Shown here: piece by piece, positions 16,868 to 54,816 of the stretch
How the letters are laid out: every line of letters starts with the position of its first letter
How positions within the stretch are numbered: the stretch's first letter is position 1
Sequence record: PP989838.1
DNA length: 64,000 bases
From: Escherichia phage VTCCBPA_211
Direction: 5' to 3' (one strand)
The notes under the pieces: generated by a model
Told to the model about the DNA's origin: nothing
The model's input: only the letters and a program-made list of their open reading frames with translations
The model's database searches: none
Position numbers and translations under genes: made by a program

Positions 16868-16876
16868 AAATGTATA
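16868..16876 (+). promoter_or_regulatory. promoter-like motif AAATGTATA (near-consensus TAATGTATA)
   Basis: In intergenic region about 40 nt upstream of the ATG at 16916. Confidence 0.4.
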
Positions 16877-21569: not shown

Positions 21570-21759
21570 CACTCAAGAGTTAGTGATAGAAGAGATTAAA
21601 GCTCAGATAGTTGATAAACTCTCTATCAGGGTTGATTCTAAAGACACCAAATGCTCTGGTATATTGAAGATAGAACTTCTTTACAATGGAGAAGTTATTT
21701 CCTTTGATGAGGTATATGCCTCTGATATTAAATACTTAGCAGAGTTTTAATAGCATCCA

Positions 21760-21768
21760 TAATGTATA
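21760..21768 (+). promoter_or_regulatory. promoter motif TAATGTATA
   Basis: Exact motif 36 nt upstream of the ATG at 21805. Confidence 0.5.
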
Positions 21769-21804
21769 CTCCTTAGTGTACACTGATATATTAAGGAGTT
21801 TTAA

Positions 21805-22128
21805 ATGGCAGATCATGTAGGAAAGAGAGATTATGCACAAGAAAGACGTACCGCAATTGCCCGTGGTGAAACAGGCGTTGGGAGCAAGAGCGGAGATGCT
21901 CAGCGCCACCGTGCACGTCGCATCGTTGAAAAGCGCGATGGAAAAGCTGCTGTCAGAGGTAAAGATGTTGGACACAAACGAGCCATCAAGTCAGGAGGCT
22001 CTAATGCGTCAAGCAACTTACGTGTTGAAACAGTCAGCGGAAATCGTTCAGCTGGCGGCAAAAGTGGAGATCGAGCTGGGAAGGCAGCTGGTGCTGCTAA
22101 GCGAAAAGGAGCTTTAAGCTCATCGTAA
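21805..22128 (+). CDS. highly basic Lys/Arg/Gly/Ala-rich protein (107 aa)
   Basis: Own TAATGTATA motif upstream, AAGGAG SD, strong terminator downstream; preferred over the overlapping 21833..22117 frame. Confidence 0.5.
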   Translation: MADHVGKRDYAQERRTAIARGETGVGSKSGDAQRHRARRIVEKRDGKAAVRGKDVGHKRAIKSGGSNASSNLRVETVSGNRSAGGKSGDRAGKAAGAAKRKGALSSS

Positions 22129-22133
22129 TATAA

Positions 22134-22163
22134 GGCTACCCAAATGGGTGGCCTTTTCTTTTA
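22134..22163 (+). terminator. rho-independent terminator
   Basis: GGCTACCC-AAAT-GGGTGGCC hairpin followed by TTTTCTTTT. Confidence 0.6.
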
Positions 22164-22196
22164 TATAAACCAAATTAAACTTCTTAGGTAATAAAT

Positions 22197-22448
22197 ATGT
22201 CTATTGTAAAATCTGTAAATATCATTGATGTAATGTCTAACAATCGTATGGTTAAATGGAAGTTCACCAATAATCACGGCATTGCTAATATCATTGCAAA
22301 CCAGATTAGTCATAACCCAAAAACAGCTCGTACTAACGTAATCCTACGTGGTGCTGATGGTAAATTCATTTCTTATAAGAATAAAGGTGTAGAGAAAGAA
22401 TTCCGTGTTGCAGTAGAAAACCTCATCCCATTCCCTAAAGGATTTTAA
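22197..22448 (+). CDS. hypothetical protein, paralog pair member 1 (83 aa)
   Basis: Shares KTARTNVILRGADGKFISY...LIPFPKGF with the next ORF. Confidence 0.45.
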   Translation: MSIVKSVNIIDVMSNNRMVKWKFTNNHGIANIIANQISHNPKTARTNVILRGADGKFISYKNKGVEKEFRVAVENLIPFPKGF

Positions 22449-22449
22449 T

Positions 22450-22734
22450 ATGAATAAATTAGCTATGGTTCAAATTCGAGACACTTTCCCTCTGCGTGAG
22501 AATATGAAACCACGCACTTGGTCTTACCTGCTAGCTGAGAGTAAGACTATCAACAAATATTTTGTAGAGATTGGTTGTATCCCAACCAGTATTACTTTGC
22601 TTCCTCATAAAACAGCTAGAACTCATGTGATGCTACGTGACAGCAAAGGTAAGTTTATCTCTTACCGTGATGAACGAATCAATAGCGATATCAAAAATGC
22701 TATGGAATCTTTAATGCCGTTCCCAAAAGGTTAA
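22450..22734 (+). CDS. hypothetical protein, paralog pair member 2 (94 aa)
   Basis: KTARTHVMLRDSKGKFISY...LMPFPKG. Confidence 0.45.
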   Translation: MNKLAMVQIRDTFPLRENMKPRTWSYLLAESKTINKYFVEIGCIPTSITLLPHKTARTHVMLRDSKGKFISYRDERINSDIKNAMESLMPFPKG

Positions 22735-27824: not shown

Positions 27825-28230
27825 AGAACCTGTAGTTTATAAAGACTCTATCAGAGATCAGTATAATGAGATGTTAAAGAAACAATCTGATTCTAATCTT
27901 CGTTATCAGAGGATAGTAGAACAAACTAACTTTAAAGGTTTACTTGAATGGTAACTTATATCCTTTACTTTTTAGCTTTCTTAGGAATAATCTTTTTATC
28001 TATTATTCTTGAATTTGGTTTAAGTAAGTTAGTTAATTATTTAGGTAATAAGTAATTATTATTCTTTTAAATAGAGAATCAAAGTCCCTAGGAGTCCCTA
28101 CAACCTAAATCAAGGATTCCTTAATTCTCTATTTTTATCTCGCAGGTGGCTCCTGCCCTTCGGTACTTGCAAGGGATTCTGTGAATTGCCCAATATACAA
28201 GCCTGCAATAACTTTATCAGCTATACAATA

Positions 28231-28239
28231 TATACATTA
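28231..28239 (-). promoter_or_regulatory. TAATGTATA motif in antisense orientation
   Basis: Reverse complement of TATACATTA; points away from the SSB-like gene toward the upstream plus-strand operon. Confidence 0.3.
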
Positions 28240-28302
28240 CTAGTGTGATATATCTACTACCAAAGATACTTATATTATATAGTACTCTTATCGGTATAAG
28301 CG

Positions 28303-28311
28303 TAATGTATA
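28303..28311 (+). promoter_or_regulatory. promoter motif TAATGTATA
   Basis: Exact motif in the 416-bp intergenic region, about 60 nt upstream of the ATG at 28371. Confidence 0.5.
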
Positions 28312-28370
28312 CTATACATAACCGCTCAAAGAGAGCAACAATCTTTCAAATTAAATAAGGAAATTAAAAT

Positions 28371-37926: not shown

Positions 37927-37935
37927 TATACATTA
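37927..37935 (-). promoter_or_regulatory. promoter motif TAATGTATA (minus strand)
   Basis: Motif then AAAGGAGA SD then ATG at 37888. Confidence 0.5.
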
Positions 37936-54021: not shown

Positions 54022-54774
54022 TTATACACGAGAAGTACGAATACCATAAATATCAGGCAAGCTGCTCTGAAGACGAGTCATGTTATTCGGAATTGCGATA
54101 GGTGAACCTGAGTACTCTTGTTTCTTATTCTGCTCTACCATTTCATCAAGGATAGCTTTTCCTAATGCTGACCATTTCTGGACTCCGTTATCATCTTGAA
54201 CAAACAAGCAAGCATGACGTAGAGTGAAATACAGAAGAAGTTCTGGTGCAATAGTAAGGATAGCACTGGTATCTGTATCTTCGTGGAATTCCGGTGGGTC
54301 TGCATAATAACTAAGAATTACTGAGTTTTCTGCTGGAATCAAAGGGCTTCCATCATCAGGGTAGTGCGGAGTATCTGCTTCGATGCTAGGGTAGAAAATG
54401 AAACGACTACCGAAACGAGCAAAGTTAACAGGTTGGTTATTCCAGTGAGATGGGTTAATTGTTCCATGCTGTCTACGATAGCTAATCTCTTCAGGAGAGG
54501 TTACTTGGAAGATTGTACCATCTTTGGCTCTCATCATCCATTGAGCTTCTAAGTAATCAGGAGGAATATAAGCCACTCCATCTTTGATATCTAAATACAC
54601 TTCTTTTTCCAGAGGAGGGATACGTAAGTTACGATAAATCTCTTTCTCTGCAAAGTTAATAAAGTTTGGAATTTGATTAACAAATTCGTCATCGTCCCTA
54701 TCTGCCCAGAGGGCCACGGCCTTCTTTAGCCACCCATAGGTATTGATGGGGTATTGAACATCTGGCATTGCCAT
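54022..54774 (-). CDS. virion structural protein (250 aa)
   Basis: First gene after a terminator plus TAATGTATA motif; ACAAGGAGGA SD. Confidence 0.4.
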   Translation of the reverse strand: MAMPDVQYPINTYGWLKKAVALWADRDDDEFVNQIPNFINFAEKEIYRNLRIPPLEKEVYLDIKDGVAYIPPDYLEAQWMMRAKDGTIFQVTSPEEISYRRQHGTINPSHWNNQPVNFARFGSRFIFYPSIEADTPHYPDDGSPLIPAENSVILSYYADPPEFHEDTDTSAILTIAPELLLYFTLRHACLFVQDDNGVQKWSALGKAILDEMVEQNKKQEYSGSPIAIPNNMTRLQSSLPDIYGIRTSRV

Positions 54775-54807
54775 AGGTTGTCCTCCTTGTTATATGTAGA
54801 CAAAGAA

Positions 54808-54816
54808 TATACATTA
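54808..54816 (-). promoter_or_regulatory. promoter motif TAATGTATA (minus strand)
   Basis: Just downstream of a terminator, about 40 nt upstream of the ATG at 54774. Confidence 0.5.

Follow-up and report, generated by a model that had tools for sequence, protein, structure and literature searches.

The gene 58 cassette of a phiEco32-like coliphage and its product, a predicted cysteine-free HNH protein behind a putative leader gate

Introduction

Why does a small gene that lies inside a long co-directional operon carry a promoter and a terminator of its own, and what does it encode? The question is raised by positions 21760-22164 of a 64,000-nucleotide stretch of Escherichia phage VTCCBPA_211 (sequence record PP989838.1), the whole of which we call the window. 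The window comes from a phiEco32-like Kuravirus (Gordonclarkvirinae) coliphage, and the 2-kb region around the gene is 90 to 95% identical in DNA to about 100 phiEco32-group Escherichia phages. Read from its sequence, the region is the gene 58 cassette of such a phage and consists of a promoter, a leader hairpin, a small protein gene, and a terminator. As a whole, it is best explained as a time-gated cassette that encodes a predicted HNH nuclease, an explanation that we hold to be probable, if well short of certain.

Promoter P58 and its sigma factor have been published, so the cassette itself is no discovery; the literature already contains the transcription unit, and what is added here, an HNH assignment and a leader gate, is modest. 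The product has been treated as hypothetical in the SU10, YF01, and Lavysh 2022 literature. A literature search found no mention of phiEco32 gp58, and for its homolog LUZ24 gp26 the titles and abstracts found held nothing relevant.

Results

The gene 58 cassette and promoter P58

The features of the cassette, numbered from the first letter of the window, are the following:

21736..21763, plus strand: weak sigma-70-like match TTAGCA-16-CATAAT (9/12 in a consensus scan), overlapping the phage promoter element
21760..21768, plus strand: TAATGTATA, the -10-like element of the gp36-sigma-dependent middle promoter P58, an exact match to the published promoter
21768..21799, plus strand: leader hairpin, a 13-bp inverted repeat with a 6-nucleotide (nt) loop and arms at 21768-21780 (ACTCCTTAGTGTA) and 21787-21799 (TATATTAAGGAGT)
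21775..21777, plus strand: predicted P58 transcription start, from the published spacing
21793..21798, plus strand: Shine-Dalgarno (SD) sequence AAGGAG, read directly in the sequence, with the ATG six bases on
21805..22128, plus strand: coding sequence (CDS) of 107 aa, ortholog of phiEco32 gp58 (phi32_58), predicted cysteine-free mini-HNH family, PHROG 4590
21833..22117, plus strand: alternative-frame open reading frame (ORF) of 94 aa, judged non-coding because it has no family match and contains stops in distant homologs
22132..22164, plus strand: intrinsic terminator or attenuator, a 10-bp stem (22132-22155; 6 G-C pairs) with a 4-nt loop, followed by TTCTTTT

The original prediction had pictured a self-contained, apparently highly expressed unit for a very basic 107-aa protein. 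The single ORF, the exact promoter-like motif, the AAGGAG ribosome-binding site, and the strong terminator that it described are all present, and the promoter-gene-terminator arrangement is real and insulated. Strong expression signals are there as well; the expression level itself is not evident from the sequence. The terminator folds at -17.5 kcal/mol (z = -3.95), none of 200 shuffled sequences folds as well, and phiEco32 has conserved it. With phiEco32 gp58, a hypothetical protein of 105 aa, the protein shares about 94% identity; in that phage phi32_58 lies between the PhoH-like phi32_60 and the DNA polymerase phi32_53.

phiEco32's middle and late promoters are used by the host RNA polymerase (RNAP) together with the phage sigma factor gp36; they consist of the single element tAATGTAtA, and transcription starts 6 to 8 nt downstream. 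The AATGTA of these promoters is centred at -11.5, which in the window puts the +1 at 21775. Table S3 of Lavysh et al. (2022) gives the TAATGTATA promoters P13, P26, P40, and P58 for phiEco32, with equivalents in five relatives, and for the interval from CDS56 to CDS57 the SU10 supplement prints a middle promoter, 'acttataatgtatactccttagtgtacactgatatattaag'; starting with the motif, the window has this very sequence. The P58 element is the same in phiEco32, EcoN5, NJ01, ECBP2, and KBNP1711, and its flanks match the published SU10 and phiEco32 P58. This comparison identifies the TAATGTATA at 21760 as P58, a gp36-sigma middle promoter already published. Exact copies of TAATGTATA number five in the window against 0.62 expected, a count reached by only 1 of 100 shuffles. 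The copy at 28303 (plus strand) fits P40; by strand and gene order, those at 37927 and 54808 (both minus strand) fit P26 and P13. AAATGTATA at 16869 (plus strand) fits P68. For the same CDS56-CDS57 interval, the SU10 paper also describes a sigma-70 promoter whose -35 is poor; in the window, sigma-70-like consensus matches are not enriched over shuffles.

Reading frame

The alternative ORF to which the original prediction drew attention exists, and it can be set aside as a gene. It has no Pfam or PHROG match, and its frame is open only in near-identical Kuravirus genomes; in LUZ24, Vp_R1, SE131, and Aeromonas phage 4_4572 it is interrupted by 3 to 8 stops. The frame that starts at 21805 (frame 1) is open in all of these phages. 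It matches PHROG 4590 (1.4e-38), and a database search gave it 199 homologs, with identities as low as about 55%. Substitutions in this frame fall mostly at third positions (14 of 20 against phiEco32 and 17 of 27 against EcoN5). The SU10 paper identified a 10.8-kDa protein by mass spectrometry in a polyethylene glycol (PEG) phage preparation (2 peptides, 18.3% coverage, from a search database of annotated CDSs only), and the frame-1 protein of SU10, its ortholog gp56, has a mass of 10.83 kDa. Through this ortholog, the proteomic comparison that had been proposed to decide the frame supports the 21805 frame as the coding one, as the peptides map to the frame-1 protein.

The predicted HNH fold of gp58

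The protein is indeed rich in Lys, Arg, Gly, and Ala (17 Ala, 17 Gly, 15 Arg, and 11 Lys in 107 aa, or 56%), with an isoelectric point (pI) of 11.5 and a net charge of about +16. The G+C content of the gene, 51% against 42.6% for the window (63%, 59%, and 31% at codon positions 1, 2, and 3), is raised because of this amino acid composition. Three parts can be told apart:

21826..21921, plus strand: N-terminal motif RDYxQERxTAxxRGETGxGSxSxDAxRHRARR (residues 8-39), two helices, family-specific, from family alignments and AlphaFold (AF2)
21958..22059, plus strand: predicted HNH beta-beta-alpha core (residues 52-85) with His57, Asn71, and Asn80, and with Gly56 in place of the usual Asp
22060..22125, plus strand: disordered basic C-terminal tail rich in Gly, Lys, Ala, and Ser (residues 86-107); predicted local distance difference test score (pLDDT) below 50 at residues 85-103

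Read by eye, residues 37-85 look like an HNH motif minus all four cysteines. Two independent AF2 models, with a core pLDDT of 83 to 90, place helices at residues 10-19 and 30-45, strands at 53-57 and 72-76, and, ahead of the disordered tail, a helix from residue 77, so that the predicted model contains the beta-hairpin and subsequent alpha-helix of a beta-beta-alpha-metal fold. Profile comparisons point to the same superfamily. Sub-threshold matches to Pfam HNH were found in 24 of 31 family members and to HNH_3 in 10 of 31 (best E = 7.5e-5), and two distant members pass the Pfam gathering cut-offs (P0221 for HNH, 24.1 bits with a cut-off of 21.4; P0196 for HNH_3, 25.8 bits with a cut-off of 24.8). 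An hhalign comparison of the family with a canonical cysteine-containing HNH protein gave E = 7.9e-5 with GKDVGHKRAIKSGGSNASSNLRVETVSGNRSAGG aligned, and it matches His57, Asn71, and Asn80 to the DH, N, and N of that protein.

Of 259 family sequences, 98% keep His57, and 95% each keep Asn71 and Asn80; in a family with a mean column identity of 38%, such conservation is not easily explained unless the protein is catalytic. At position 56, 78% of the family have Asp, 10% Gly, and 5% His. The window protein and 238 of 258 family members are free of cysteine. The N-terminal motif is the best-conserved part of the family (R34 and R38, 95%); it was not recognised in other HNH proteins, no search having been made with the motif alone. 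The C-terminal tail keeps its composition and varies in sequence. A profile search of 1.84 billion representatives returned only 379 clusters, nearly all of 60 to 130 aa. Foldseek against the PDB reached only E of about 1. The best small structural matches were the GVE2 phage HNH and the Gme HNH nickase. Taken together, sequence, structure prediction, and comparison indicate that gp58 is most likely a minimal, cysteine-free member of the HNH (beta-beta-alpha-metal) superfamily. That it binds nucleic acid, as the original prediction proposed from composition, is very likely.

A gp58-like mini-HNH domain also forms the C terminus of proteins of about 790 aa (46 clusters; P0210, P0218, P0222, P0241, P0258, P0267-P0310), encoded on contigs of up to 128 kb. 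Their N-terminal 700 aa or so have no Pfam or PHROG match, and a homolog search gave no informative names. At locus L008 (10001-12409), such a gene lies near genes for ThyX, a class II ribonucleotide reductase, and a PD-(D/E)XK protein, with no function indicated.

Distribution and genomic context

The gene is listed as common to all phiEco32-like phages plus 7-11 and GAP52. Our tblastn search found it in 250 phage records, 105 of them from Pseudomonas phages (mostly LUZ24-like) and 94 from Escherichia phages; the remainder belong to Aeromonas, Proteus, Salmonella, Cronobacter, and Vibrio phages. It always lies in the nucleotide-metabolism and replication module, which runs from PhoH/Dps/ThyX to DNA polymerase, and is syntenic across genera. 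In LUZ24 it directly follows a 3'-5' exonuclease gene annotated 'DNA polymerase part I', and in phage Paul the terminase is at 2.0-3.6 kb and the gene 58 ortholog at 43.5 kb, about 40 kb apart. A core, syntenic replication-module gene far from the terminase argues against both a homing endonuclease and a terminase-adjacent HNH protein.

Annotations of the family are inconsistent and some look wrong. LUZ24 gp26 and UFV-P2 ORF33 are annotated as membrane proteins, the feature under the SeKF_80 match is called 'cytidyltransferase', and in Cronobacter phage A24 and a UniRef cluster the protein is an HNH endonuclease.

Leader hairpin

The leader hairpin was not mentioned in the original prediction. 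Within it, the anti-SD sequence CTCCTT at 21769-21774 pairs with the SD AAGGAG. Folding predictions for leaders that include upstream sequence give -17 to -24 kcal/mol with the SD fully paired; an RNA beginning at 21775 folds at only -1.6 kcal/mol. Among the 51 SD-bearing ORFs of the window, gene 58 ranks first in predicted SD pairing (P = 0.999); the median is 0.51, and only 2 of the 51 reach at least 0.95. With the anti-SD ending at 21774, the predicted +1 (21775) is the very next base.

The terminator scan found no plus-strand terminator between 21300 and gene 58, so transcripts from P68 or an earlier promoter should read into the gene. RNA initiated upstream would carry the anti-SD, and its ribosome-binding site would be locked in the 13-bp hairpin. 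P58 RNA, with its +1 near 21775, would start just past the anti-SD and have a free ribosome-binding site. Because the anti-SD would be part of the read-through RNA and absent from the P58 RNA, the former is expected to be silent and the latter translatable. The hairpin thus probably blocks translation of read-through RNA, and we infer that the expression of gene 58 is gated in time at two levels.

Similar layouts were found elsewhere in the family. In L015 and L018, uncultivated viral contigs of 88 to 90 kb for which no cultured relatives were found, the SD and anti-SD sequences differ from those of the window; the anti-SD stands upstream of a promoter-like TATTGTATA or AATGTATA, and RNA starting from that element has its SD freed. 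At the 7-11-like locus L035, the SD is sequestered with P = 0.97.

It is possible, if rather doubtful, that the hairpin is not a translational gate and instead is a weak terminator, a processing or stability element of upstream transcripts, or a product of chance. It is followed by TTTT, its z score is only -2.5 with 3 of 200 shuffles folding equally well, and it shows no covariation within Kuravirus. However, the terminator scan did not flag it, it pairs precisely the SD with the highest SD pairing in the window, its anti-SD stops one base short of the predicted +1, and L015 and L018 have analogous designs built from different sequences.

Two further observations concern leaders. A palindrome, GTGTACAC, occupies 21776-21783 (plus strand), right after the predicted P58 start; it is kept in L015 and partly in L018 (GGTACAC), though the surrounding leader has diverged, and it could be an initially transcribed or operator-like element. 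At 54774-54816 (minus strand), the P13-equivalent late promoter (TAATGTATA) is directly followed by TTCTTTGT. The next gene has the ribosome-binding site ACAAGGAG, to which this sequence can pair if two G-U pairs are counted, in a weaker version of the gene 58 layout (SD pairing 0.82, fold z = -0.67).

The terminator junction and other parts of the window

GC-rich hairpins, mostly with a T-tract, stand 3' of the orthologs in LUZ24, Vp_R1, SE131, and Aeromonas phage 4_4572 (loci L003 4284-4310, L004 3792-3850, L005 3819-3850, and L006 3816-3875), despite unrelated flanking genes, and each of the lineages examined has such a GC-rich hairpin after the gene. From these sequences, the end of a transcription unit after gene 58 orthologs appears to be conserved across genera.

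The junction between the gene 58 stop codon and the terminator is an insertion hot spot, as seen in EcoN5 (L002 2600-3200), SU10 (L052 465-540), and YF01 (gp53/gp54). In EcoN5 and YF01 it holds a gene for an HNH homing endonuclease of 164 aa that is Pfam-positive; after the EcoN5 insert, the final 25 or so nt of gene 58 are preserved together with the terminator, which is kept downstream of the inserted HNH gene. SU10 has a different, unique gene at this place and no terminator directly 3' of gp56.

Beyond the terminator lie two genes for small paralogous proteins (22197-22448 and 22450-22734, plus strand), both ending in ...KTARTxVxLRxxxGKFISY...N/ExLxPFPKG; judged by sequence, the pair looks like a tandem duplication. 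Homologs of the first, gp57, are called 'autotransporter adhesin' in several records. Further along, another exact TAATGTATA at 28231-28239 (minus strand) is found 72 bp upstream of the P40 equivalent at 28303-28311 (plus strand) and is directed backwards into the preceding genes. Both promoters are inside an unusually long non-coding stretch of about 415 nt (about 27955-28370), and the minus-strand copy may be a gp36 promoter, divergent or antisense, or may belong to an origin-like region. Scans of the entire window for Rfam families and tRNAs gave no hits.

Discussion

The explanation that we favour, a time-gated cassette for a predicted HNH nuclease, can be set out as follows. gp58 synthesis would wait for an active phage sigma, and the protein would act in the replication, recombination, or maturation phase. 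It is predicted to be an Mg/Mn-dependent endonuclease that nicks or cleaves DNA, either with little sequence specificity or in a structure-specific way, which is the least certain step of the proposal. It would carry an Arg-rich N-terminal two-helix motif and be held on the DNA by its disordered basic tail, and in Kuravirus the Gly56 substitution may weaken catalysis. The terminator would end or attenuate the transcript, so that gene 58 is expressed out of proportion to genes 57-41, which would depend on read-through. If the leader gate is true, it would account for the separate promoter of a gene embedded in a long co-directional operon.

Several points weigh against this explanation. In the window protein, phiEco32, EcoN5, ECBP2, and SU10, Gly56 replaces the Asp that is a metal ligand of many HNH enzymes, and Gly recurs at this position in several unrelated lineages, as expected were catalysis dispensable. 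An Asp or His before the catalytic His is, for its part, not universal in the HNH superfamily. The window protein has no Pfam, NCBIfam, or PDB-sequence match of its own, and searches of these databases with the window protein or the family profile returned no usable match. Nuclease activity is a prediction throughout the gp58 family. As for the leader, many distant homologs lack SD sequestration (predicted pairing P = 0.2-0.5), the promoters taken for L015 and L018 are guesses, and the hairpin, AU-rich and nearly invariant within Kuravirus, offers no covariation in that genus. The +1 of P58 is predicted from the published spacing, and a +1 upstream of 21769 would break the gating model.

Because of Gly56, the main rival is a catalytically inactive protein. 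gp58 would then be a dead HNH scaffold, an abundant architectural or charge-neutralising DNA-binding protein that plays a histone-like role in a new fold. The pI, the net charge, and the disordered Gly/Lys/Ala tail fit such a role, Gly takes the place of the metal-ligand Asp in Kuravirus and in about 10% of the family, the expression signals are strong, and the SU10 ortholog is detectable by mass spectrometry in a PEG phage preparation. A Dps-like DNA-binding protein is encoded nearby in the same phage. We nevertheless consider this reading unlikely. Residues His57, Asn71, and Asn80 are 95 to 98% conserved, an SD-masking leader is a device that T4 uses for harmful nucleases, and gp58 has no sequence or fold similarity to the HU/IHF, H-NS, Hc1, or Dps families. 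For the same reason, the histone-like identity offered in the original prediction is not supported; fold and motifs are those of an HNH nuclease. In some beta-beta-alpha-metal nucleases, such as I-PpoI and the Serratia nuclease, a single Asn is the metal ligand, which also speaks against a dead scaffold.

It is improbable that gp58 is a packaging-associated HNH protein of the HK97 gp74/GVE2 type, which would nick DNA together with the terminase to form the direct terminal repeats of about 190 bp. The closest small structures, the GVE2 HNH and the Gme HNH nickase, would fit this, Kuravirus has 193-bp direct terminal repeats, LUZ24-like phages share both the gene and short terminal repeats, and the SU10 authors consider end formation in these phages unexplained. 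Yet the gene never adjoins terminase or portal genes, it belongs to the middle (replication) class and not the late class, and the family lacks the zinc-ribbon cysteines of the gp74/GVE2/Gme group.

A free-standing HNH homing endonuclease, and thus selfish mobile DNA, is very improbable. Like the seg, mob, and I-Tev genes of T4, gene 58 is small and HNH-like and has its own promoter, an RBS (ribosome-binding site)-masking hairpin, and a terminator, and the LUZ24 ortholog has one part of a split DNA polymerase on either side. But homing genes are sporadic, and this is a core, syntenic gene in 250 records over several genera; its product has no extra DNA-recognition domain, and genuine homing HNH genes insert beside it in EcoN5 and YF01. 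An RNAP-binding transcription factor, also suggested by the original prediction, is barely credible: the protein is basic and small and has a phage-sigma promoter, but its fold is that of HNH proteins, its orthologs occur in 7-11-like and LUZ24-like phages with differing transcription strategies, and RNAP isolated from cells infected with phiEco32 carried only gp36 and gp79 (PMC12276001), which argues against a stably RNAP-bound gp58.

One extension of the nuclease reading is a long shot. LUZ24-type phages have strand-specific nicks at TACT/RTGMC, and two papers on these phages name no enzyme for them. The gp58/LUZ24 gp26 family (PHROG 4590), which C3-type podoviruses and Bruynogheviruses conserve in their replication module, might be the missing phage nickase, making programmed single-strand breaks and restricted to the middle phase by the promoter-in-hairpin gate. 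It would make the TACT/RTGMC nicks in LUZ24-, tf-, and Rembedalsseter-like phages, and in Kuravirus its nicks would fall elsewhere, such as at the edges of the 193-bp terminal repeats. The window shows no enrichment of TACTRTGMC (each strand has one exact copy, and copies with one mismatch number 34 where 46.7 are expected), and no strand-specific over-represented 8- to 11-mer was found there, so the nickase idea stays speculative.

What the analysis adds is that a 'hypothetical' core gene of several podovirus genera can be assigned, with the strength given above, to the HNH fold, in an unusual cysteine-free form with its own N-terminal motif. The family thereby becomes a candidate for DNA nicking or processing in phages with unexplained end formation and genome nicks. 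Neither the HNH assignment nor the leader gate would overturn current views.

Compared with known systems, the closest is phiEco32 P58/phi32_58 itself, an orthologous locus with identical promoter and leader, about 94% protein identity, and the same terminator; there is no real difference. LUZ24 gp26 and tf gp29 (Bruynoghevirus) belong to the same family, are about 60% identical over residues 8-80, and lie in the replication module. LUZ24 gp26 has a DH dyad where Kuravirus gp58 has Gly56, and the 70 nt upstream of its gene show no TAATGTATA promoter. The GVE2 HNH (PDB 5H0O), the Gme HNH (4H9D), and HK97 gp74 bind zinc through two CxxC pairs and carry a DH dyad, and those from phages adjoin the terminase. 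The gp58 family, in contrast to these zinc-ribbon mini-HNH nickases, is cysteine-free, has the unique N-terminal RDY...RGE...RHRARR motif and a basic tail, and sits in the replication module; in Kuravirus gp58, GH stands where those nickases have DH.

For the leader, the comparison is with T4 e, soc, 49 (endonuclease VII), I-TevI/II/III, and segB and with Aeh1 mobE, which have a promoter inside an RBS-masking hairpin. On long upstream transcripts the SD is sequestered, and the transcript of the phase-specific promoter lacks the 5' arm; the genes gated in this way mainly encode nucleases or lysis proteins that are harmful if made early. The gene 58 leader resembles this arrangement, with its anti-SD ending at 21774 and its predicted +1 at 21775, the mechanism being documented in T4 and predicted here. 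Whereas the T4 genes use gp55 and are of the late class, the gene 58 promoter is of the middle class and uses the phage's own sigma factor gp36. This suggests that phiEco32-type phages may use the promoter-inside-hairpin gate of T4 for dangerous nucleases, driven by a phage-encoded sigma.

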